Virus record (IMG/VR): IMGVR_UViG_3300045684_000050
Span: 1 to 64,000 of that record
Direction: 5' to 3' (one strand)
DNA: 64,000 nt
Source: a virus
A program made the translations under genes and the position numbers. A model generated the notes under the pieces. It was not told the origin of the DNA. It saw only the letters and a program-made list of their open reading frames with translations, and did no database searches. Of the stretch, positions 3,275-32,412 are shown piece after piece. Each line of letters opens with the position of its first letter. Position 1 is the stretch's first letter.

Positions 3275-3730
3275 ATGAACAATGTAAATCAAATTGGAGA
3301 ATTAAAGTTACAATACATTCCACTACCATTTAAAGGTGCAAAAGTTTATCAATCTGACATGGTGTATAAATATCTTATAGACAATTGTTATGATAAGATT
3401 GATATTCATTTAACCGAGTCTTTCTATGCTCTATATTTAAACATGAATGGAGACATCGTTGGATGGTACAGAATAAGTAGTGGAGGAATCGCATCATGTG
3501 TAGTTGATATTAGGATGGTATTTCAAAAAGCTTTATTGTGTCCGAAGTGTACAAGTATCATATTGAGCCATAACCACCCATCAAATAATCTAAAGCCTAG
3601 TAATCAAGACAAATCATTGACCACTAAAATTTGCCAAGGTGCAGAAATTTTGCAATTCAAAATATTAGACCACATAATTGTGACGCCAGATAATGGGTAT
3701 TACTCTTTTGCTGATGATGGAATAATCTAA
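3275..3730 (+). CDS. radC: RadC-like JAB-domain protein (UPF0758)
   Basis: JAMM motif SHNHPSNNLKPSNQD, plus GIASCVVDIRMVF and ILDHIIV. Confidence 0.9.
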   Translation: MNNVNQIGELKLQYIPLPFKGAKVYQSDMVYKYLIDNCYDKIDIHLTESFYALYLNMNGDIVGWYRISSGGIASCVVDIRMVFQKALLCPKCTSIILSHNHPSNNLKPSNQDKSLTTKICQGAEILQFKILDHIIVTPDNGYYSFADDGII

Positions 3731-19270: not shown

Positions 19271-19867
19271 CTACTCTACTAAGACGATGTAATCATCTGT
19301 AATTGCAAAATCTATTGCTTCCACAAATACGTCAGGGTAGTAAATCCCACAATATCTACTTGTCATCACATATACAGCGGAGTCCGGAGATGTTGTTGCT
19401 ACACCATAAATTGGCAAACTTATTCCAGGCAAATAGTGCAGATAATCAGACCCTTTTGATATAATCGTATGTATAGCTCCACCTATGTAAGGAACTTCAT
19501 CTGGACCTACTGATGGACCTATATTCTTCATAAACAATGTATCTGCATTAAAAGTATCACAATCCTCATAGAACTTGAATGCACAGTTATTGATTAATTC
19601 CGATCCGATTCCACCACCTCCTTCAATCCAAAGAGTATTTTTAACTGGTGGTAGTTTGTATACGAACCTGCAGCTCCTTGGTTGTGATGCTCTTTTATCT
19701 TTTATGATAGGTATTGAAGACAATGAGGAGTCACGATCCGGGTGATCATCTGGACATTTATATACAACACTTATTGGTCCAAATCCTGTAGTATCGTTTA
19801 AGTCTTTATCACATGCAAAAAAGACGACTATAGTAAATACGAATAATGATAATATTGATTTTTTCAT
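19271..19867 (-). CDS. Predicted lipoprotein (198 aa)
   Basis: MKK + hydrophobic stretch + lipobox FFAC followed by acidic DKD. Confidence 0.75.
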   Translation of the reverse strand: MKKSILSLFVFTIVVFFACDKDLNDTTGFGPISVVYKCPDDHPDRDSSLSSIPIIKDKRASQPRSCRFVYKLPPVKNTLWIEGGGGIGSELINNCAFKFYEDCDTFNADTLFMKNIGPSVGPDEVPYIGGAIHTIISKGSDYLHYLPGISLPIYGVATTSPDSAVYVMTSRYCGIYYPDVFVEAIDFAITDDYIVLVE

Positions 19868-19920
19868 GTTAGATTAGTTTAATACTTTGTTAATTTATGA
19901 GTAGTTCCATTACATGAGAT

Positions 19921-20394
19921 TTAAGTCCTCTTGTTTTTATTTTTGAAGCAATCTACACAAGATCCTTTTTTCGAAGGACCAGGTATTTTCCTTGCTATTA
20001 TGCTATCCTGAGTTACTATGTAAGTATATATGCTGTCTATTTGGGGCACATATGGCAACGTGTAAGAGATAATGTCACATCCGACTACTTGTGAAGGCCT
20101 ATTAAATTGAAGCCCTGACATGCCATCTAATTCGTTTATCTGGTACTCGATTATCCAGCTATAAAACTTAGATTCAAAAAAAAGAAATACTGGATCTCTA
20201 TCGACTGGGAAAACACATTGGTTATTATACAGTCCAAATGTTACAGAAATAGTGGTATCCTGCCCATGGCATACTTCGTATATCCATTCTGATGTACATC
20301 TCTTCTCATTATTTTTTACCTCAATGAAGTTCACTAACTGAGCTTGAAGGAAAATCAATGTAAAGACGAATATGGTTGTTAATATACTTCTCAT
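19921..20394 (-). CDS. Predicted secreted protein (likely start ATG 20394, MRSILTTIFVFTLIFLQAQ)
   Basis: Sec-type signal peptide; TATCTTTG box at 20400-20407; the frame stays open upstream through hairpin site S1. Confidence 0.7.
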   Translation of the reverse strand: MRSILTTIFVFTLIFLQAQLVNFIEVKNNEKRCTSEWIYEVCHGQDTTISVTFGLYNNQCVFPVDRDPVFLFFESKFYSWIIEYQINELDGMSGLQFNRPSQVVGCDIISYTLPYVPQIDSIYTYIVTQDSIIARKIPGPSKKGSCVDCFKNKNKRT

Positions 20395-20435
20395 AAAACC
20401 AAAGATAATTATTTTATTTATAAATTGAAAACACA

Positions 20436-20494
20436 TCCTAACAGTCGCTGATGATTCCATTTTTTTCAAAACGGAACATAGATTGGTGTTATAT
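20436..20494 (-). repeat. attC-like site S1 (59 bp, short family)
   Basis: ATATAAC-accaatctATGTTCC..GGAAtCATcagcgact-GTTAGGA; the 3' 20 bp are identical to S8. Confidence 0.75.
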
Positions 20495-20498
20495 GCAA

Positions 20499-20702
20499 TT
20501 ATAAAAGAGCCTTGTGGTCACGGATGGAAATTTCACATTGAGCTACCTTGCTACTTAATTTCGCTTGTAGTTGTTTGTATGTTTCATCTTTCAACCCAAC
20601 ATCGGTGTTTAACTCTTCAATTCTGTTCCAAAGCCAAAGCCATTTATCACGCTCTTTTTGCTTTTTATCAATATGAAATTCAATACTTGTTTTATTTGAC
20701 AT
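20499..20702 (-). CDS. Cassette ORF, hypothetical (67 aa)
   Basis: Between S2 and S1. Confidence 0.7.
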   Translation of the reverse strand: MSNKTSIEFHIDKKQKERDKWLWLWNRIEELNTDVGLKDETYKQLQAKLSSKVAQCEISIRDHKALL

Positions 20703-20720
20703 AATCGTTTAAATAACTGC

Positions 20721-20837
20721 CGCCAACAATGTATATAAGCCATTGTGTCGGTTCATTTCTGAAAGTGAATAGTTAATATTTATATTTGTTTTTCAATTTA
20801 ATTCTGTATTCAACGGCTCATATACAAACCGTTAGTC
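20721..20837 (-). repeat. attC-like site S2 (117 bp, long family)
   Basis: GACTAAC-ggtt-TGTATATGAGCC ... GGCTTATATACA-tt-GTTGGCG. Confidence 0.8.
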
Positions 20838-21038
20838 GCCATTAGACAATAGTTTTTCATGGTCTGATATAGATTTGTCTAGATAATACCATCTATTGTT
20901 TATGACCGTATGTATTTTTTTATACACCTCATCGCTCATTGAATTATCTGCATGTAGAATATCAGTGTATTCTTTGTACTTTTTTAGGGTCTCTTTTTCG
21001 TTTTTTATTTTTTGGATATGATGTTTTATTAAGTCCAT
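20832..21038 (-). CDS. Cassette ORF, hypothetical (68 aa from ATG 21038; in-frame TTG at 21077)
   Basis: Stop TAA lies inside the GGCGACTAAC box of S2. Confidence 0.7.
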   Translation of the reverse strand: MDLIKHHIQKIKNEKETLKKYKEYTDILHADNSMSDEVYKKIHTVINNRWYYLDKSISDHEKLLSNGD

Positions 21039-21068
21039 TTGAATAATTTTAGTGGTGAAATAAACGGC

Positions 21069-21136
21069 GACTAACAAAGTTTATCACGCTATGTCTCCCG
21101 ATGGTCGCCACATCGGATACACTTATCACGTTAGTG
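21069..21136 (-). repeat. attC-like site S3 (68 bp)
   Basis: CACTAAC ... TCCGATG-tgcgac-CATCGGGA ... GTTAGTC. Confidence 0.8.
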
Positions 21137-21517
21137 ATAATGCCATTCGAGCTTTTGCCCACAATTTGAGCAATTATTATCACCATGACCTATTTCTACT
21201 TCCTTACAATTTGGACAGATATACATTGGTGCACCATTATCCCATTGTTCATACGGGTGTTTATCTTTAATTTCATCAACAACTAAGGCACTATCACTAA
21301 CACCCAATAAACCCAATAATTTTAACTGTTTAATCTTACCTTCTTCTTCAATAAACCTAACTATTTCATCTCGTAGTCCTTCAAGATGTTCTGTAAGTGA
21401 TAATGAAGCTGGTGGTCCATCCCAAGATTGGAATTTAATCGCATTTTCTCTTGTTTGATATAAGTACCCTTGATTAAATTTCTTCTTAATTTTTTCAGTC
21501 AAAATTTTATTGTCCAT
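21131..21517 (-). CDS. Composite cassette ORF with a C-terminal Zn-ribbon (CPNC...CSNC)
   Basis: Internal GTTAGTGATA box at 21292-21301 marks the fusion point; stop lies inside S3. Confidence 0.75.
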   Translation of the reverse strand: MDNKILTEKIKKKFNQGYLYQTRENAIKFQSWDGPPASLSLTEHLEGLRDEIVRFIEEEGKIKQLKLLGLLGVSDSALVVDEIKDKHPYEQWDNGAPMYICPNCKEVEIGHGDNNCSNCGQKLEWHYH

Positions 21518-21546
21518 TTTTTTAATTTTATTAGGTAATAAAAAGC

Positions 21547-21676
21547 ATATAACAATAAATATAAGTAATAGGGCGAAGGAACGACTTTCACGGTCTGTGT
21601 TAAGCTATTTTATAAGCGAAACATTCATAGGTTTGATTCTCACATAAGCCCACTACTCATATTCTTGTAATTAGGT
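21547..21676 (-). repeat. attC-like site S4 (130 bp, long family)
   Basis: ACCTAAT..AATATGAGTAGTGGGC ... GCCCTATTACTTATATT..GTTATAT. Confidence 0.75.
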
Positions 21677-21680
21677 ACAA

Positions 21681-21860
21681 TTAAACCCAACTCTTCCAAT
21701 GTGTAGGTGTATAATAAACATACATACTTCCATCAGGTATCCACCAAAGTTTACCATCAAACTTTAATTCTTGCTCATTCCTTGTTCCGTTTTCATCTTC
21801 AATTCTAGTCATCATCACCTTATTCTTTAGTGTATGCTCTTCTGTTACTTTTTTCCACAT
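21681..21860 (-). CDS. Cassette ORF (59 aa, DUF551-like), paralogue of 25350..25550
   Basis: Not in the ORF track; ...RNEQELKFDGKLWWIPDGSMYVYYTPTHW. Confidence 0.8.
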   Translation of the reverse strand: MWKKVTEEHTLKNKVMMTRIEDENGTRNEQELKFDGKLWWIPDGSMYVYYTPTHWKSWV

Positions 21861-21870
21861 AATTAACTGT

Positions 21871-21993
21871 GCCTAACAATGTGTATAAGCAATAGCCGTT
21901 AGGCATTTTAAACTATTGCAGTTGGTAATATTTAAGTTTCTACTTCTAATCAAGTTCTGTATTCGGCTACTTGCCATATAATTAACGTTGTGC
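21871..21993 (-). repeat. attC-like site S5 (123 bp, long family) with two extra stacked left boxes at 21995-22001 and 22007-22013
   Basis: GCACAAC..GGCAAGTAGCCG ... CGGCTATTGCTTATACACATT-GTTAGGC; loop shares AATACAGAA and TAAATATTA with S2. Confidence 0.8.
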
Positions 21994-22021
21994 GGTTATA
22001 CTAAGCGTTACCTACAAGTGC

Positions 22022-22795
22022 TTACTTCTGTGTTCCAAATAAAGTTTGTGCTTGTAAATCTTTTTCTTTTCTTTTTTCTTCCACCCTCTTTTTTGAGTTA
22101 TCAAAGTGTTCTGTTTCGTTCTCAATACCAATGCCATTCCTATTAGTTTCAATACAAGAAACCATTGTTGTTCCACTTCCCATTGTCATATCCAATACCG
22201 TTTCGCCTTCATTTGTATAGGTATTAATCATATAAGAACAAAGTTCGGTTGGCTTCTGTGTTGGATGTAATTTACCGCTACTATTGTGGACGCATTTGAA
22301 GTTTAACAATGCTGTATCAGGAGAAATCCAATCGCTTTGTCTATCCAAATATTCTTCTTTTTGCTTTCCGTAGTTGCTTGTTTTCGAGTTGTACTTATTA
22401 CCGCTTTTGACCTCTGTAGTTCTTTTTTTCTTCTGTGGATTGTAAGTCGGTGGCTTTTTATAAAATACCTGCAAAGTTTCGTGTCCACCCATAGGCATTC
22501 GTCTTGCGTTTAGGTTTCCAGTCTTTAAGTTTTTTACCCATACCCACTCGTATTTGTGATATTTTATTTGTGAACTTATTAGAGTGGTTGTAAACGGTTG
22601 AGCAGAAAAAATAACTACTGCTGCATTAGGTTTACATACACGCCATACTTGTTTCCACATTTCTCCCAAGTCAATTATACTATCCCATTTGTTCTGAGTA
22701 GTCCCATAAGGCAAGTCGCAAAGTATCATATCAACACTTCCGCTTTCAATCGTTTTCATTACTTCGAGGCAATCGCCATACTTTAAGTCAATCAT
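22022..22795 (-). CDS. N4/N6 DNA methyltransferase (beta class), cassette cargo
   Basis: YGDCLEVM, DMILCDLPYG, HPTQKP, VLDMTMGSGTT. Confidence 0.92.
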   Translation of the reverse strand: MIDLKYGDCLEVMKTIESGSVDMILCDLPYGTTQNKWDSIIDLGEMWKQVWRVCKPNAAVVIFSAQPFTTTLISSQIKYHKYEWVWVKNLKTGNLNARRMPMGGHETLQVFYKKPPTYNPQKKKRTTEVKSGNKYNSKTSNYGKQKEEYLDRQSDWISPDTALLNFKCVHNSSGKLHPTQKPTELCSYMINTYTNEGETVLDMTMGSGTTMVSCIETNRNGIGIENETEHFDNSKKRVEEKRKEKDLQAQTLFGTQK

Positions 22796-22894
22796 ATATT
22801 TTAATTTTTCAAATTAATTTTGCCAACGCTCAAAAAAAGAAGAAAAAAGGTCTGTGTTTATAATCAAAGTTTGTGCTTTAAAGTCGCACCAGAC

Positions 22895-22955
22895 ATACAA
22901 CACGTAATATAATTAATGGCAAAAAAGCCACTAACCATATTACCATACGTTATCT
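22895..22955 (-). repeat. attC-like site S6 (61 bp); additional orphan GTTGGCA box at 22821-22827
   Basis: AGATAAC-gtatgg-TAATATGG-TTAGTGGC-tttttt-GCCATTAA-TTATATTA-cgt-GTTGTAT. Confidence 0.8.
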
Positions 22956-22960
22956 ACAAA

Positions 22961-23167
22961 CTAATCCTCATTTGCTAATTTATCACGCCATCCAATAATT
23001 TCTTGGCAAGCACCCGTACAAAAACATTGTTGGTTTTTGCACCCTTTTTTTATAGCTACTTTTCCGTTAGTCTGTTCTTTCATTGCATCAAATTTGAAAG
23101 TAATGTTGCTGTTATCGGCTATAAAATCATTGCATTGTTTTTCTTTTGAAATGTTTTTTGTACTCAT
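22961..23167 (-). CDS. Cassette ORF (68 aa) whose start and first ~20 codons lie inside site S7
   Basis: QCNDFIAD is encoded by the right arm of S7. Confidence 0.7.
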   Translation of the reverse strand: MSTKNISKEKQCNDFIADNSNITFKFDAMKEQTNGKVAIKKGCKNQQCFCTGACQEIIGWRDKLANED

Positions 23168-23243
23168 AATTTTATGCTTTTAATTAATATTATTGTTTTA
23201 TTTTAGGTCGGCAACGAGAGTTTACCCGTAGCCGTTGTTGTAA
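23108..23243 (-). repeat. attC-like site S7 (about 136 bp; right box degenerate and inside the CDS)
   Basis: TTACAAC-aa-CGGCTA...GTTGC pairs with GCAAT...TAGCCG. Confidence 0.6.
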
Positions 23244-23252
23244 AACACAGCC

Positions 23253-23807
23253 TCACTTAACTAATCGTTCTTTCAACCATTCAGCCCCAGCTTTAAAAGA
23301 GCCGTAATTATCTCCTGCTGTATTGTTATTATTGCTCCACTTGTGGCCATTCAGATCAAACACCCAGTGGTCGGCTGCATCTGCAATTTGTTCATCGCTC
23401 GGCAACCAGTTTAAAACAATGTGTATATTGCATTGCTGATTTAGTTCTGCACATAGCTTAGTATTCGCAGCATTTTTACGAGTGCTATTAAGAAAGTCTG
23501 CATATTCTTTTGCATAGATTTCTAATCCTTTTGGGAATATTACAACCTCATAACCTCTTGCATCTAATACTGATCGCATATGCTTTCTTCCAACTCTAAA
23601 TGGCTGAAAAAAAACGGGTGCTAACAAATTATTTACGTCAGTTTGGTTATCTTTCTTTTTTAGTTCTCTATTCCAAACCATATTTATAGAGTCAGCATTA
23701 TTTTCTATAAATCTGCTGTCCCACTTTAAAAAGGATAATAACATATTTAGTAAGTCAGCTATAATCGCCAAAGGACTTAGTATTGTTTTAATTATAAGTA
23801 TTAACAT
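23253..23807 (-). CDS. Three-part composite cassette ORF (184 aa)
   Basis: Internal right-arm relics at NNLLAP (GTTAGCACC, 23617-23625) and QCNIHIV (ATATACACATTGTT, 23415-23428). Confidence 0.7.
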   Translation of the reverse strand: MLILIIKTILSPLAIIADLLNMLLSFLKWDSRFIENNADSINMVWNRELKKKDNQTDVNNLLAPVFFQPFRVGRKHMRSVLDARGYEVVIFPKGLEIYAKEYADFLNSTRKNAANTKLCAELNQQCNIHIVLNWLPSDEQIADAADHWVFDLNGHKWSNNNNTAGDNYGSFKAGAEWLKERLVK

Positions 23808-23837
23808 AATTTAAGTTTAAAAAACATCATAAACACA

Positions 23838-23892
23838 TCCTAACAGTCGCTCACGATGCCATCTTTCAGACGGCACATAGCTTGTCTTTATG
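23838..23892 (-). repeat. attC-like site S8 (55 bp, short family; left box degenerate)
   Basis: caagctATGTGCC-gtctgaaagat-GGCATCGT-gagcgact-GTTAGGA. Confidence 0.75.
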
Positions 23893-24328
23893 TGTCATCA
23901 GATAGTAGCCTTTTCTTTAATACTTGGGTACAGAAATCATCTTCTTTTATATCACCATCAGCGAAGCAATGATCCCATAATTCAGTATTCGACATAGATA
24001 AAATATCATTCTCATATTCAGAGACCCCATTTTCAATATTTTGTTTTAATCTAATCCCAACTAAAGCATCATTAATGCCTCTCAACATTTTAGCCTTCTT
24101 TGGATCTTTCCCCTGTACCGCATCAGCAGTATCTATTAATGTACGCTTTTCAGTATGCCTAACACCTTCTACCTTATCTTCATATCTGCGTATAGTAGCT
24201 AATGCTTCAAAGAAGTCTTCAGTATCCCAATTTTCCCAACAGGCGTGAACCATTGCATGATTAAGGTACCATTTTTTTAAATTTTCGCTGATTTTCATAA
24301 GTTGAAATTTATGCACGATTGATAACAC
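23888..24328 (-). CDS. Cassette ORF, hypothetical (about 136-146 aa)
   Basis: Between S9 and S8; stop lies inside the left box of S8. Confidence 0.75.
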   Translation of the reverse strand: MLSIVHKFQLMKISENLKKWYLNHAMVHACWENWDTEDFFEALATIRRYEDKVEGVRHTEKRTLIDTADAVQGKDPKKAKMLRGINDALVGIRLKQNIENGVSEYENDILSMSNTELWDHCFADGDIKEDDFCTQVLKKRLLSDDT

Positions 24329-24384
24329 TATGTATGATGTCAGACTCGTGCCTCATCCGAACACATACATTTTAACCGTTAGCG
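24320..24384 (-). repeat. attC-like site S9 (65 bp)
   Basis: CGCTAAC..ATGTATGTG-TT-CGGA-tgaggcacgag-TCTG-a-CATCATACAT-agt-GTTATCA. Confidence 0.8.
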
Positions 24385-24588
24385 AAAATAATCACCTAAC
24401 AATTTTATTATTTCATTTGATATATCTTGCCTACCTTGAAAGTATTTAACATTTGAACTATTGTGAGGTAATTTACCTATTGTTTCGCCTGATTCTTTTT
24501 TGTCATTTTTGACAAAAGAATTTACTTTTGCTAACAAGGTATAAAGTTCATTGCTTAAATCTTTTTTGAGGGTATTTTCTGTACTCAT
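24379..24588 (-). CDS. Composite cassette ORF (69 aa) with a site-derived leader ELYTLLAK
   Basis: Internal GTTAGCAAAA at 24526-24535; stop lies inside S9. Confidence 0.7.
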   Translation of the reverse strand: MSTENTLKKDLSNELYTLLAKVNSFVKNDKKESGETIGKLPHNSSNVKYFQGRQDISNEIIKLLGDYFR

Positions 24589-24617
24589 AATTTAAGTTTA
24601 AAAAATATTATAAAGTT

Positions 24618-24680
24618 ACCTAACAGTCGCTATATGATCATTCTCCTTGCGTCGAACGACTACATAGCTTAGTGTTATCA
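24618..24680 (-). repeat. attC-like site S10 (63 bp, short family)
   Basis: TGATAAC-actaagctATGT...CATATagcgact-GTTAGGT. Confidence 0.8.
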
Positions 24681-25058
24681 TCAATTGATTCCAAAACCAC
24701 CATCTACTATTTCGATACATTCATTTACACTATCTTTTACTTTGTAGTCATAATTTCCTCCATCATCTTCTTCTAGTATGCTTTTCAGCTTTCTCATCGA
24801 GTTGATATTTTCTAGTTTTGATTTCCCTATCATTTGATGCTCTAGTATTACTTTGTCACCATTTGTTTCATAGTCTTCATCGTACCCTTTTAGGATTCGT
24901 AGTATGTGGTAATCGTTAGTGTCTGGAGTGATGTATATTTTTTCATACTCATCATACATTCCTTCAAAGTTCTTTTTTGCGAACTCTGTTATGTCTGTCG
25001 CTTTTGCAAATTCAAATTTCATTGTTTTAGTTTTTACGTTTAAAAAAGATGATAACAT
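24681..25058 (-). CDS. Cassette ORF, acidic hypothetical (113-125 aa)
   Basis: Between S11 and S10. Confidence 0.75.
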   Translation of the reverse strand: MLSSFLNVKTKTMKFEFAKATDITEFAKKNFEGMYDEYEKIYITPDTNDYHILRILKGYDEDYETNGDKVILEHQMIGKSKLENINSMRKLKSILEEDDGGNYDYKVKDSVNECIEIVDGGFGIN

Positions 25059-25114
25059 GGATTATACTCCATATTCCGCTTTGCTCCATACATGATCATA
25101 CTCAGGCGTTATAC
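25050..25114 (-). repeat. attC-like site S11 (65 bp)
   Basis: GTATAAC ... GTTATCA; inner stem imperfect. Confidence 0.7.
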
Positions 25115-25363
25115 AGAATGTAAAGAAAGCAGATAGTCAGCGGCTTGTATCTCCTTATCAAACCATCCCTCTGGATATTCAACCCATCTTTTATTTTCTG
25201 TTTTCATTTCAACTAATCTAAGCCGCCAATCAAGCAGTTCATTAATTGATGGAAGTTTATTTGTTCTTTGATAATCGGATATTAATACACTCTGTATAAC
25301 ACCCGATATGTCGCTATATTCGTTCCTCATACATCGCATATCTTTACCGTTAGTGACCATTAA
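25109..25363 (-). CDS. Cassette ORF whose start codon and leader (MRCMRNEYSDISGV) lie within site S12; exact start uncertain
   Basis: 3' part of ORF 25109..25447; stop lies inside the left box of S11. Confidence 0.55.
   Translation of the reverse strand, partial: LMVTNGKDMRCMRNEYSDISGVIQSVLISDYQRTNKLPSINELLDWRLRLVEMKTENKRWVEYPEGWFDKEIQAADYLLSLHSV
25294..25355 (-). repeat. attC-like site S12 (62 bp)
   Basis: CACTAAC-ggtaaag-ATATG-CGATGTAT-gaggaacga-ATATAGCG-a-CATAT-cgggt-GTTATAC. Confidence 0.8.
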
Positions 25364-25550
25364 TAGAAGAAAGAACATAATCCCAATAATGGGTAGGAGA
25401 ATAGTAAACATACATGGAGCCATCGGGAAACCACCAAAGTTTACCATCGAATTTTAATTCTTGTTCATTTCTAACTCCGTTTAGGTCATCAACCTTGGTT
25501 TTCAAGATTTTATTTTTCGGAGGATTTTGTTTCGATATTTCAATCCACAT
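25350..25550 (-). CDS. Cassette ORF (66 aa, DUF551-like), paralogue of 21681..21860
   Basis: RNEQELKFDGKLWWFPDGSMYVYYSPTH; stop lies inside S12. Confidence 0.8.
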   Translation of the reverse strand: MWIEISKQNPPKNKILKTKVDDLNGVRNEQELKFDGKLWWFPDGSMYVYYSPTHYWDYVLSSINGH

Positions 25551-25556
25551 GATTTT

Positions 25557-25925
25557 TTAATTTGAGTGACGTTGTGAATATACCCGAAGGCAGTTTTTAC
25601 AGGCATTGCCGAGAGGTAGGTTTATTGTCATCCTAAAGTTGCCATTTTCATCAAATCCACGTCCGCAAATTGGAGCGGAAACATGGCTTGCTGGAATTAG
25701 ATTTTTAGAGTCTTTTCCTTCTCCGGCTTCATATACGAGGTGTAATTTTTGACCTCCTTTGATTTGCATATATCGCATGATAAATAATTGAAAAGATGAA
25801 AAGAAAACGGTCATTAACAAGGTACTCAACGTCAATACCTCCCATACGGTCGGTACTGCGTGAGTACAAACCGATATGTCCATTGCTCGTGCCTCACAAC
25901 GGCACATAGCCAAACCGTTGTGCAT
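25557..25925 (-). CDS. Cassette ORF; the N-terminal ~38 aa are site S13 read in frame, the true start is probably MRYMQIK
   Basis: C-terminal part KLHLVYE...APICGR...CKNC. Confidence 0.65.
   Translation of the reverse strand: MHNGLAMCRCEARAMDISVCTHAVPTVWEVLTLSTLLMTVFFSSFQLFIMRYMQIKGGQKLHLVYEAGEGKDSKNLIPASHVSAPICGRGFDENGNFRMTINLPLGNACKNCLRVYSQRHSN
25812..25923 (-). repeat. Composite attC-like site S13 (112 bp, two hairpins in tandem)
   Basis: GCACAAC..TATGT-GCC-GTTG-tgaggcacgag-CAAT-GG-ACATA, then GTACTCA-CG-CAGTACC..GGTATTG-a-CG-tTGAGTAC-ctt-GTTAATG. Confidence 0.75.
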
Positions 25926-29700: not shown

Positions 29701-32171
29701 CACAAGTGAATGTCAGACCCATGCAATATATAAGCAGGTACAGTAGATGCTGATCCTCTTCTGAATGTATTATTCCCTCCTGGATTGATGTCTTTATCGT
29801 AATATTCCAATGAATTAACCCCTAGTTTACCAAATAATGCTGTCTCTCCCTGAATCAAACCTGAATAAGTACCTATCATTAGGTTGTTACCAATGTTTGT
29901 TTTGTTCTGCTCAGTTCTAGGAGCATAGTATATGGTAAAAGGATTGGCCTTGCATAATCTTTTCTTAAATTCATCCGGAAGACTCTCCATTATCTTTTTG
30001 ATAGATAGTCCAGTAAAGATGGCAAAGGTGTCTCCATCAGGAGTATTGATGACATCATACTTATTCTCTACTCCACTCCTTAGAGATACATAATGTGGCT
30101 CTTTCGTTAATGAAGGAACTCTAAACCCTCTGACATTCTTCCCTGCCCACTCTCTATATACTGGAGGACATCCTTCTTCAGCTTTATCAACAATATCAGG
30201 ATATAACTGGTTAGTAAGTCCACAACCAAAGATGCCTTCGCTGTAAGGGATAGGAATAATATTAGAGACACAATCTAAATCTGATCCTAATATGTTTGGA
30301 CTAAAACCATTTGTATCTGTACCTCTAGCCTGTATATCTCCTCTTAATGATTGCCCTGATGGGAATGTCTTGTTCTTATTATCTCTCTTATACTCAGTCT
30401 GCTTGTCGTAGTGATAAGCATTATTTACATACTTCCATTTACCTCCCTGACACTCATAGCATGTCTGGCCGGAACATCGGATCTCTCCTTCTTTACTACA
30501 AGCTATCTGTGTATCTATATATTTTATCTTGTCACTAGGAGTTTTTGTGTCTGCATCGATCTTGGCAAAGTTCTTATTAGCATTGGGTAATGCTTGCTCT
30601 CTGGCACAATCAATAGGACTATGCCAACAATCCATATATAATGATGAATTTGCACCAAAAAAATCAGCTATAGCTATAATAAGATTATCTAAAAAAGATC
30701 TATTACAGTTAGCACAATCCAAATACTCATCTGCGTAATCTAACGCTTCTTCATCACCTGGAGTAAGAAATCCCTGGACATCACCTTCATCTCCTGAAGT
30801 CGTAGGAGGATCAACAATATTGCCAGGATCCGTAGCAGATTCTGTGCTCGTATCTCTAGGATCTATCTTAGGAGTTATGTTATTGTCAAACTCGAACTTC
30901 TCATTGCTATTGCTAAACTGCTCCTGGAATGCCTTGGATAACTCATTGGCATCAGTAATGTATAATTTTGTTCTTTGGGATGTATCTTGATAGGTAGGTA
31001 CTGCACACGTTCCACATTGTTCCCCTATAGGAGCACACTGACCCATATGATTAATGAATTCAAATGCTTTGGTCCGGGTGCCATCATCAAAGTTGAAACC
31101 AATGGCAGGAATATACATCTCATTAGCTTTCAATCCTTTATAATTCTTAGCTTCAGACATAGGTACTGCCCAACGCTTATAAAATACCTCCATCTTATTT
31201 ACATACTGCTGTAAACTCCAATCTCTCTCAGGCTCGACATTGAATAAGACTAATCTACCATCTACCGATTCATGATCTGCACCATTGTAATTGTGCTTGA
31301 TTCTGCTAGTAAGCTCAGTAAGCTTATCATCACCATCAGCAACATAACCCTCAACACCTGTATATGTATATCTTAGATATCCATTTCCGTAGCCTACATT
31401 CTCTATAACCCTGTATGTTTTTTTGGAATCTATTGTCCCGATGATCACTATGTCAGCTAGACTATATTCTTTCGGTAAGTCAGCGATCTCCATGGCTAAT
31501 GCTCCTTTTCCTTCTTCTCCAGGTCTGAAGTCTCCATGAGCAACACTTAGCGGTTGGCTGGTAATTGAATAATTGGTAGGATTACCATCGCTATCCTTTA
31601 CTCTTACAGATACTTTATAACTTCCATTAGCTAACCTGCCCATGCCATCGATGACAACAACTTTAGCTACTGCCACACACTTAGGTCTACATAACTTGGT
31701 ATCTGTGTAATCACAACAGGGATCTGTAATGTTTATAACCCGGTATACATTATCCGTCTGGAAATAAATGTGGATGTTATTGCAGTGAGATACATAGTTG
31801 ACATCTATATCTGTCCACACACAAGGAGAAAAACCTAATGGCATGTCTAACCCTGATGAGCTGTCATCCATTACTTTCATATACTGCTTTCTTTTGTAGT
31901 CTACTACTCCAACTTCTGATTGACCACCATTTAATATGAATGTAATGAAAACATCTTCTTCTTCTAATTCATAACACCCTCTCAAGTCTGCTCCTTCAGG
32001 AAGACATACTGATATCTTATTTGCTGTATCCGAAGAAATATAAGATAAAGCATGATCGGCTTGCTTCTTTGTAGTTCCGTAAGAATTAGTATAAGTATGA
32101 TCAGGCTGTTCTTGTGGTATTCCATCCCTATAAAGATGTGAAAATAAACGAACAATCGACTTTATTGGCAT
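26760..32171 (-). CDS. Large tail protein, crAss-like muzzle/stabilisation-protein type (1803 aa)
   Basis: N-terminal LYRDGIPQEQPDHTY, beta-rich and Cys-rich, C-terminal SFHLYRPD/FNEYYG pattern; family call by eye. Confidence 0.55.
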   Translation of the reverse strand: MPIKSIVRLFSHLYRDGIPQEQPDHTYTNSYGTTKKQADHALSYISSDTANKISVCLPEGADLRGCYELEEEDVFITFILNGGQSEVGVVDYKRKQYMKVMDDSSSGLDMPLGFSPCVWTDIDVNYVSHCNNIHIYFQTDNVYRVINITDPCCDYTDTKLCRPKCVAVAKVVVIDGMGRLANGSYKVSVRVKDSDGNPTNYSITSQPLSVAHGDFRPGEEGKGALAMEIADLPKEYSLADIVIIGTIDSKKTYRVIENVGYGNGYLRYTYTGVEGYVADGDDKLTELTSRIKHNYNGADHESVDGRLVLFNVEPERDWSLQQYVNKMEVFYKRWAVPMSEAKNYKGLKANEMYIPAIGFNFDDGTRTKAFEFINHMGQCAPIGEQCGTCAVPTYQDTSQRTKLYITDANELSKAFQEQFSNSNEKFEFDNNITPKIDPRDTSTESATDPGNIVDPPTTSGDEGDVQGFLTPGDEEALDYADEYLDCANCNRSFLDNLIIAIADFFGANSSLYMDCWHSPIDCAREQALPNANKNFAKIDADTKTPSDKIKYIDTQIACSKEGEIRCSGQTCYECQGGKWKYVNNAYHYDKQTEYKRDNKNKTFPSGQSLRGDIQARGTDTNGFSPNILGSDLDCVSNIIPIPYSEGIFGCGLTNQLYPDIVDKAEEGCPPVYREWAGKNVRGFRVPSLTKEPHYVSLRSGVENKYDVINTPDGDTFAIFTGLSIKKIMESLPDEFKKRLCKANPFTIYYAPRTEQNKTNIGNNLMIGTYSGLIQGETALFGKLGVNSLEYYDKDINPGGNNTFRRGSASTVPAYILHGSDIHLWGKRTDGDYLLIEQETFGCGWRFKQYSEGRPAESPFESKLNLAGTTQSISLNHFQPPIGSDGGPILRCLKAMKYAPADSIVTKDNKFTHTLVNTYRESSMYVEIDGSKIALENGSRPLAGSLNGSDGADDLSFIGDTIDHESLIGDSRAWNVTTMKYLPNQYGSSINRVYIPIGLHGDSTSFDTGEVEGICGDSFTGPFSVKRSAFVSDKVPEEISPSGDFGSVEIEVDIPIIGGVISDLLTSIARSILKVAGFEECGTVPMTGDKDDVRNALGSLRRGMRAITDKDGAGLLPPSEDGIIIKLWFITITLQTPPDAYFPHLLKTLVRTYLQSDANLHYRAAGAIRIGDYKNLDFGTAEVHQDRLKTLKLDSSFPEGTDYELGWLDRIAFFMEEPPRWKMILRMILNIIWVYGPGFFFIYQGIIAIYTGLSKIGSGFFFAGSVGAGLAVGFGIALIAAGIIWIKDWANSDLDNKVIDSILGLEWCRPDRKMPDGPGGDFAMDPGRAKGFEDNHYNYDVSHSDINYEGFIFGMPLNYDTQVCEGRYSSKIIMSDQQVLESHLDSWRNFKPNQLLTIPRDRGQISRLIYMQNVLSVHTTDSIFHVPFKGQRLQLDSTEILLGQANLFGEPVDIYGGAITGYGGNKDPNASKITARGYFYIDRDARRFKMYTGRQDTDITFKGLEDFMDENLRFKILDDVPDFSIVDQKCKDGVYFDIGIDYAKDIIYLYKYDFSCHPGTTYSDGKFMREGSPITLGDPVGFKDESFLVSFSIKNQYYLSFHLYRPDLFLFNRFELFSLSESIIYTHFVQGRFNEYYGQLTPVYVEIPIVDKETYQNWIVRNFMVVGEVLQHNGDVVTELDIPLFEKFSVHNGRQSTGWLDFRDLGIDTDENLLNDINETDEIKFRMSTNRIVVEEFKNQVPDGISPLNKYNSELKIYEAGDLQKEQKGVFNDDYVVIRLLSLKPANVEVIFRRLILSIDTEDM

Positions 32172-32192
32172 GTCTTAATGAATTAGCTATGC

Positions 32193-32200
32193 CAAAGATA
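32193..32200 (-). promoter_or_regulatory. Promoter box TATCTTTG for the stand-alone tail gene
   Basis: Exact TAnnTTTG 22 nt upstream of ATG 32171. Confidence 0.65.
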
Positions 32201-32220
32201 ATATATATAGACTTATATTG

Positions 32221-32412
32221 CTAATTTGTATTCTGCAGGTGACAGATCTCGATCATTCCTTTCGCGTCTATGAACTTTGCGTAAGTATGACGTATATTGT
32301 CAATGCTGCAATCATGCTTCTGAGCTACCTTGTGAACGTGCCACTTATCTGATGATTTTATGTCTTTGTTTTCTTTGCTCATTGTCTTAACGTTTAATAT
32401 GTTCTTTTCCAA
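32221..32412 (-). CDS. Hypothetical protein (about 53-63 aa; start uncertain)
   Basis: ORF track; internal ATG at MSKENK. Confidence 0.45.
   Translation of the reverse strand: MEKNILNVKTMSKENKDIKSSDKWHVHKVAQKHDCSIDNIRHTYAKFIDAKGMIEICHLQNTN

Follow-up and report, generated by a model that had tools for sequence, protein, structure and literature searches.

A probable array of integron-like cassettes in a phage belongs to a hairpin site family also found in Bacteroidota chromosomes

Introduction

Do small phage genes alternating with imperfect palindromes form mobile cassettes, and at which end of the palindrome would such cassettes recombine? The question is raised by a tract located at 20.4-25.9 kb of the DNA analysed here (the window, 64,000 nucleotides in length), which corresponds to positions 1-64,000 of the 116,794-bp IMG/VR record IMGVR_UViG_3300045684_000050. 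The record features direct terminal repeats, is estimated to be 100% complete and comes from a phage described as a lytic phage of marine Bacteroidota. Every credible gene in the tract is small and encoded on the minus strand, and imperfect palindromes are found between genes. Read on the minus strand, each palindrome has the form ...N7-AAC, arm, variable middle, arm, GTT-N7.... An initial annotation of the sequence had noted that the two ends of each unit are complementary, and had taken the units for integron cassettes, inserted as circles by a crossover at the GTT downstream of the hairpin.

A classical attC site is an imperfect inverted repeat of about 55-141 bp with AAC and GTT at its ends, and is the substrate of IntI, an integrase carrying an insertion (TIGR02249, at least 265 bits). 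The gene of a classical cassette lies ahead of its attC, and its coding strand is the top, poorly folding strand. Crossover in integron cassettes is said to follow a G/TT rule, credited to Hall, Stokes and colleagues and to work of Bouvier in 2005 and MacDonald in 2006. The analysis described here indicates that the tract probably consists of about 12 mobile cassettes, each made of a site and its gene, which recombine at the AAC triplet in an integron-like manner, a host enzyme being the likely catalyst.

The hairpin sites

Twelve sites (A-F and H-M in Table 1), ranging from 51 to 139 nt, were defined by hand, leaving aside the claim of complementary ends. Thirty-four short sites from viral contigs, bacterial contigs, the window and the Polaribacter phage P12002L were aligned. 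The AAC and GTT triplets are invariant in the alignment, which predicts 11 stem pairs, 8 of them marked by compensatory changes. The L stem includes a conserved G-T pair (A-C on the opposite strand). Spacers are unequal (5-6 nt vs 3 nt) and an unpaired T is invariant at position -8; these positions differ from those of canonical attC sites. The covariance model R1, built from this alignment with R and L stems, identified 10 sites in the 116.8-kb phage, all on the minus strand at 20433-25358; L, I and J were outside the training set. With the two hand-called sites, co-oriented sites span 20433-25919 and mostly separate single small genes. One weak match only was found outside the array, on the minus strand (L002:8946-8996, genome 72946-72996; 15.3 bits, E=0.7). 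Scans based on arm alignment or on constrained folding energy failed to separate real sites from background, and were rejected as site finders.

Complementarity of the cassette ends

The N7 sequence preceding AAC and the N7' sequence following GTT are hereafter called box and tail, respectively. Five ORFs (open reading frames) of the array have as stop codon the TAA of a ...TAAC box; boxes are therefore coding, and tails are leader sequences. The 10 nt following each GTT were compared to the reverse complement of the 10 nt preceding each AAC, all tails against all boxes. Paired positions between adjacent sites were 63/110, vs 43.6 ± 4.7 when partners were shuffled (p=2e-4). The complementarity of the ends is thus real, and own ends match better than permuted ones. 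Scores of at least 8/10 were obtained for 5/11 adjacent pairs vs 1/121 non-adjacent pairs, and the tail of a site matches its own box at chance level (43/120).

All the motifs quoted in the initial annotation are present at their positions. In five of the seven quoted pairs, the end of a hairpin matches the start of the hairpin that comes after it (A to B 9/10, B to C 12/13, C to D 9/9, I to J 8/10, K to L 10/10). The remaining two include the internal motifs GTTAGTGATA (21292-21301) and GTTAGCAAAA (about 24526-24535), which are not located at hairpin ends. Refolding of circles reconstructed in silico made the outer stem longer, with a mean gain of -2.25 kcal/mol vs -0.32 ± 0.48 for random partners. 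Pairing had been proposed to extend past the usual 7-bp core, and it does so: the 6 nt beyond are significant alone (p=0.0014), and the match comprises the triplet, then 6-7 bp, a fixed mismatch, and a further 2-3 bp.

The two internal motifs are degenerate right-arm remnants on the minus strand, found at 24529-24551 in ORF 24379-24588 (GTTAGCAAAA) and at 21292-21320 in ORF 21131-21517 (GTTAGTGATA). Each remnant pairs with the box closing its own ORF. In a 128-amino acid protein the match to a zinc ribbon begins just past the remnant, which suggests that two cassettes were fused in frame.

The sole strong match between non-adjacent sites involves the tail of J (about 21550) and the box of M (about 20491-20500), with units K and L in between, and is suggestive of a nested insertion or a rearrangement.

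The site family in viral contigs and Bacteroidota chromosomes

An 18-nt motif, taken from the right arms of I and L, matched 44 IMG/VR contigs, about 40 of which host a complete site. Arrays of 2-5 co-oriented sites were identified by R1 in these other viral contigs. Pairing in 29 adjacent pairs from 20 of them was 176/290 vs 118.5 ± 8.5 (p<=1e-5), and scores of at least 8/10 were reached by 10/29 adjacent pairs vs 1/50 pairs within a single site. Two contigs, L022 (site at about 3442-3499) and L038 (site at about 1939-1996), have the same downstream sequence and several compensatory changes in both stem arms, indicating selection for the hairpin.

A 21-nt version of the motif matched 88 stretches in species-representative genomes, nearly all from Bacteroidota, including Flavobacteriaceae, Cyclobacteriaceae, Sphingobacterium and Balneolaceae. 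The arrays that R1 detected in these stretches comprise as many as 8 co-oriented sites in 8 kb, and 32 adjacent pairs display the same profile of end complementarity. The pairing profile by position is alike in bacteria, other phages and the window (adjacent pairs: bacterial n=32, viral n=32, window n=9). Positions 1-7 past the triplet pair with a frequency of 0.7-0.8 vs 0.3-0.5 in shuffled pairs. Position 8 never pairs, as the box has a T in 73/73 cases and the tail a G, T or C. Pairing resumes at positions 9-11 in bacteria. The sole mismatch in the 12/13 pair formed by B and C falls at this fixed position 8. The profile shows that the signature of the cassette ends is a family-wide rule, including a fixed unpaired T.

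A long array is hosted by the complete chromosome of Tenacibaculum insulae, in which more than 50 copies of a site of about 137 nt are found in a single orientation at 115.6-248 kb (an array of about 133 kb). The first site lies 3.8 kb downstream of a co-oriented gene encoding a 394-amino acid tyrosine recombinase. With the "XerA / integron integrase" model (cut-off 220) the protein reaches 216.6 bits; with TIGR02249 (cut-off 265) it reaches 192.9 bits, in two pieces omitting model positions 180-237, which correspond to the IntI insertion. Its nearest solved relative is XerA, and VchIntIA also matches in two pieces. As judged from these comparisons, the recombinase flanking the bacterial arrays is Xer-like and devoid of the IntI insertion. 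In four more genomes a site is located at most 1.5 kb downstream of a similar recombinase, with the same geometry. The stretch that separates the T. insulae recombinase from the first site encodes a Dcm methylase and a MvaI/BcnI nuclease, and an insertion sequence (IS)-type transposase is found within the array. In Bacteroidota, the reports of IntegronFinder 2.0 are limited to In0 elements and a single Salinibacter integron, and in a literature search no paper was found on integron-like arrays of Bacteroidota with a Xer-like recombinase. A search of whole bacterial genomes with the RNA model missed known sites because it scored only 150 of about 1700 candidates; its result was not used.

Recombinases are missing in the phages. 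Searches of the whole 116.8-kb record for the integron integrase model, PF00589 (tyrosine recombinase) and serine resolvases were negative, and all control genomes were positive. Only 1/40 array-bearing viral records encodes a tyrosine recombinase, and 0/9 of those at least 90% complete. The single protein was rejected as array enzyme, being an ordinary phage integrase encoded away from the sites and unrelated to the recombinase of the bacterial arrays.

Orientation of genes and sites

Phage and bacterial arrays have in common the site family, the triplets, the invariant T, the arms bearing G-T positions and the complementary ends. They differ in that the phage has no recombinase, and the orientation of genes relative to sites is reversed. 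Genes are opposite to the model orientation in 14/14 bacterial arrays, and on the same strand in 10/10 viral arrays and in the window. Flanking genes are antisense in 151 cases vs 3 sense in bacteria (60 loci vs 0), and sense in 53 cases vs 1 antisense in phages (27 loci vs 1); the figures for the window are 9 sense vs 0. In bacteria the gene precedes the site, according to the classical order; in phages the site precedes the gene, and the phage cassettes are a mirror-image pool.

In 9/12 window sites the AAC...GTT strand is the better-folding of the two. The conserved G-T positions of the stem are on the AAC...GTT strand also in bacteria, where this strand is non-coding. Since the same strand asymmetry is found in bacteria and phages, the asymmetry probably operates at the DNA level. 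The AAC...GTT strand corresponds to the "bottom" strand of integrons. A possible reason for the mirror orientation is that it would make the folding strand coincide with the coding strand, which is probably the template of lagging-strand synthesis.

Position of the crossover

Complementarity of the ends is symmetric, and crossovers upstream and downstream of the hairpin cannot be told apart by it. The inheritance of site cores along with their flanks was therefore compared. In bacteria, cores of sites that have in common only the flank on the GTT side are 0.99 identical (n=23 site pairs), while those having in common only the flank on the AAC side are 0.61 identical (n=10), at the background level of 0.58. 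The switch in the identity profile falls precisely at AAC. In the bacterial coding direction, this breakpoint coincides with the classical gene-then-site layout, with crossover at G/TT.

The set of long-type viral sites was enlarged by a second motif search. Flank classes defined by global alignment were dropped, as background identity is about 0.6 by this method, and BLAST was used instead. In six pairs only the downstream flank is common, and core identity is 0.94 vs a background of 0.85 (p=4e-4). No pair of long-type viral sites has only the upstream flank in common. Contigs L016 and L044, as well as L170 and L171, have identical 115-nt cores, and homology starts from AAC onward. The AAC breakpoint with inheritance of the GTT-side flank is thus clear in bacteria, and represented in phages by few cases and one exception.

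Additional data come from the contigs, not the reads, of a single public metagenome run that contains the region and is probably the source sample. Contigs break within the array with 30-nt overlaps at 24351-24380, 24378-24407, 24649-24678 and 25108-25137, and have depths of 21.3, 12.4, 17.9, 15.4 and 22.3. Breaks are flush with the AAC of E (end 24380, start 24378) and of C (start 25108), and 2 nt past the triplet of D. They are suggestive of alternative neighbours joined at AAC triplets.

On balance, crossover likely takes place at the AAC triplet upstream of the hairpin, which reads G/TT on the other strand, and the hairpin is most likely carried along with the gene that follows, not with the gene that precedes it. 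Core-flank linkage and contig breaks disfavour the downstream GTT proposed in the initial annotation, the methylase cassette excepted; the part of that proposal which is supported is that the units are integron-style, their ends matching through what would have been a circle recombined at a conserved triplet.

Phage P12002L and published phage clusters

Seventeen CALINs (clusters of attC sites lacking integrase) have been described in phages; one of these phages is P12002L, which is virulent, infects Polaribacter and has methylase cargo (Qi et al. 2023, Front Microbiol 14:1091391, PMC9892861). Five of the six phage sites tested recombined with attI1 under the action of IntI1 (PMC9892861). The study makes no link to Bacteroidota chromosomal arrays, to the mirror orientation or to the crossover side (PMC9892861). 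P12002L_attC1 (L001:1001-1061) belongs to the site family of the window (R1 50 bits); attC2 of the same phage, a weak palindrome, had been called on the opposite strand. Site H and the start of the methylase gene (22674-22959) are 74.6% identical to P12002L 32002-32288. Both phages are lytic and recombinase-free, and host co-oriented hairpin sites among small genes as well as orphan DNA methylases; the window phage differs in having about 12 sites, vs the two called in P12002L. The window phage has no intI; its sites were called by the model R1, whereas the definition of a CALIN is based on the attC model of IntegronFinder (at least two sites called, and no intI nearby). On the minus strand of P12002L (L001), GTTGGCAGTA within ORF P12002L_0037 (about 2115-2125) complements TACTGCCAAC, the start of the next site (about 1950-1960), at 10/10 positions; here too, a cassette start lies inside coding sequence.

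Proposed mechanism and alternatives

The unit of exchange would be an imperfect hairpin site of 51-139 nt followed by one or two small genes. It would leave as a circle and enter another site by site-specific recombination within the upstream AAC triplet, the AAC...GTT strand being the one that folds. In the circle, the 7 bp following GTT would face the 7 bp preceding AAC; upon insertion the two would move to opposite ends of the same unit, and this would account for the complementarity noticed initially. As the phage has no recombinase of its own, the reaction is likely catalysed in trans, during infection, by an enzyme of the host. A more specific version is only tentative, with somewhat less than even chances: Bacteroidota phages may keep a mirror-image cassette pool, cut and pasted at AAC by a host Xer-like (non-IntI) enzyme and traded among unrelated phages. 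The methylase unit, present in the 117-kb phage and in the 49-kb siphovirus P12002L, would be an example of such exchange.

Several observations weigh against recombination of host-mobilized cassettes at AAC. Adjacent ends match weakly in 6/11 pairs of the window (D to E, E to F, F to H, H to I, J to K, L to M), from which it follows that the array has undergone rearrangement or decay. Linkage is not significant for short-type viral sites (p=0.08), whose cores are too uniform. The methylase unit and contig L023 have different hairpin cores and common sequence only from the downstream GTT, so that at least one boundary fits the crossover point proposed initially. The AAC breakpoint in phages, based on few pairs and on the contigs of one run, probably the source, is supported, not settled. 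We infer the circles, the identity of the enzyme and the timing of the reaction, and no circle has been observed as a junction. No recombinase has been linked to the window phage or to its host. Finally, P12002L_attC1 is the only one of the six tested phage sites without verified IntI1 recombinants (PMC9892861), and experimental support for IntI action on the site family of the window is consequently lacking.

The last point bears also on a classical arrangement, in which each gene owns the hairpin that follows, crossover takes place at the downstream G/TT, and the array is an ordinary CALIN, its cassettes supplied by a host IntI. Complementary ends fit this arrangement equally well, homology between the methylase unit and L023 starts exactly where it predicts, P12002L sites have been called attC, and IntI1 is active on most of the phage sites tested. 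Long arrays of co-oriented, homogeneous AAC/GTT imperfect palindromes with one folding strand are in fact known in sedentary chromosomal integrons, such as the Vibrio cholerae superintegron, and crossover in a conserved triplet generates matching cassette ends (the hybrid R box) in integrons as well. However, cores are linked to downstream flanks both in bacteria and in long-type phage sites, contig nodes lie at upstream triplets, and phage genes are opposite in orientation to those of bacterial arrays of the same family, coming after their sites and on the better-folding strand. Moreover, the R stem is longer than in integrons (triplet, 6-7 bp, fixed T mismatch, 2-3 bp), no true IntI is found beside the site family, the recombinase near the bacterial arrays lacks the IntI insertion, and the sole family member tested failed with IntI1. 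The classical arrangement seems accordingly unlikely.

Alternatively, hairpins could be regulatory or RNA elements placed ahead of genes that are shuffled by homologous recombination. A precedent is offered by the promoter-early stem-loop (PeSL) cassettes of T4-type phages, which Arbiol, Comeau and Krisch reportedly described in 2010 and which are said to enclose an early promoter and thought to recombine by homology. In both systems a repeated stem-loop precedes small accessory genes in a hyperplastic phage region, and element and gene are shuffled together. The phage sites do precede their genes on the transcribed strand, in RNA the conserved G-T positions would pair as G-U, and the tails of D and F have a common conserved leader reaching the ATG. 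Unlike PeSL, the array has cassette-specific ends, breakpoints that fall at one triplet rather than being spread over the conserved arms, and no promoter signal in the motif scans: promoter-like matches are 33 vs 31.8 expected, terminator-like matches 1 vs 3.0, and the host-type TAnnTTTG occurs only once on the coding strand of the array. Sigma-70-like and Bacteroidota -7 motifs are not in excess in the array, though promoters specific to the phage may differ from these motifs. Strand asymmetry is the same in bacteria, where the strand is antisense to genes, and matched variable N7 ends need a circle recombined at a fixed point. All this makes a purely regulatory role quite improbable. The idea that the end matches merely reflect chance likeness of AT-rich intergenic palindromes, which the poorly matching adjacent pairs might suggest, is refuted by the shuffling tests in the window and in the independent contigs and by the chance level of within-site pairing, and is dismissed as exceedingly improbable.

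Other features of the array and of the phage

The phage has a GC content of about 33%, and encodes a helicase, a DNA polymerase, a sliding clamp, an 1803-amino acid virion protein and a giant ORF of 4289 amino acids. No relatives were found by searching with the neighbouring 1803-amino acid virion protein, and neither Rfam families nor tRNA genes were found in the phage. The cargo of the array includes one N6/N4 methylase and ORFans of 32-184 amino acids. Among cassette proteins, only the methylase and a zinc ribbon were assigned a function by PHROG and Pfam. Throughout the array, the coding strand is the richer in G. Two cassettes, at 21681-21860 and 25350-25550 on the minus strand, encode paralogous small proteins of 59 and 66 amino acids, which share the motif NG.RNEQELKFDGKLWW.PDGSMYVYY.PTH and match no family. 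In the gap between ORFs 23253-23807 and 22961-23167 (23180-23266, minus strand) an AAC-GG left arm is found with no right-arm counterpart; the gap may be a truncated site G. At the far end of the array, AATCTAAC precedes the ATG at 19867 and matches the tail of M at 5/10 positions only, leaving no clear entry scar. Two other contigs of the same metagenome have a short version of site L, with AAA or TA in place of the central 67 nt (20744-20812), and these short sites probably belong to other phages of the sample.

Table 1. Sites, cargo and related loci. Coordinates refer to the window unless a contig is named; tail and box matches are over 10 nt.
Feature	Position	Strand	Conserved triplets	R1 score	Remarks
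Whole array	19868-25917	minus			12 units, from one AAC triplet to the next (site, then gene or genes)
Site A	25816-25919	minus	AAC 25919-25917, GTT 25818-25816	below reach of R1	long type, first recognisable; hand-called; left arm by nhmmer E=0.4; tail pairs with box of B 8/10
Site B	25291-25358	minus	AAC 25351-25349, GTT 25300-25298	36.4 bits, E=7e-6	short type; tail pairs with box of C 9/10
Site C	25047-25117	minus	AAC 25110-25108, GTT 25056-25054	38.3 bits	
Site D	24615-24683	minus	AAC 24676-24674, GTT 24624-24622	38.7 bits	
Site E	24317-24387	minus	AAC 24380-24378, GTT 24326-24324	35.2 bits	
Site F	23842-23886	minus	GAC for AAC	below reach of R1	degenerate left box; hand-called; right arm and tail identical to those of M
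Site H	22892-22958	minus		39.6 bits	heads the DNA methylase cassette
N6/N4 DNA methyltransferase	22022-22795	minus			cargo of unit H; Pfam PF01555, 1.1e-27
Site I	21868-22016	minus		23 bits, E=0.01	long type; outside training set; a dozen viral contigs have sites 88-94% identical to it over right half, tail and start codon
Site J	21544-21679	minus	AAT for AAC	18 bits, E=0.16	long, degenerate; box pairs with tail of I 8/10
Site K	21066-21139	minus		28 bits	tail pairs with box of L 9/10 (10/10 with conserved triplet included)
Site L	20718-20840	minus		48.1 bits, E=1e-8	long type; outside training set; top score of the array
Site M	20433-20497	minus		30.7 bits	last site, then ORF 19921-20394; box pairs with tail of J 8/10, run of 6
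T. insulae array	G058:C1:114600-248100				
T. insulae recombinase gene	L150:3672-4856				

Implications

That cassette ends match is textbook knowledge on integrons, and a publication of 2023 had described CALINs in phages. Integrons are usually seen as bacterial elements operated by IntI, and Bacteroidota as almost devoid of them. Here a lytic phage has a dozen cassettes of a site family that also makes up 100-kb arrays in Bacteroidota, the orientation of the sites being reversed in phages. If a host Xer-like enzyme moves the units, phages would be using a gene-capture machine of the host to trade accessory genes, such as anti-restriction methylases, and the orientation rule would offer a direct handle on strand choice in hairpin recombination. 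Should the tentative picture of a mirror-image pool traded among phages hold true, host cassettes found in a phage array, or phage cassettes found in a host array, would face the wrong way.

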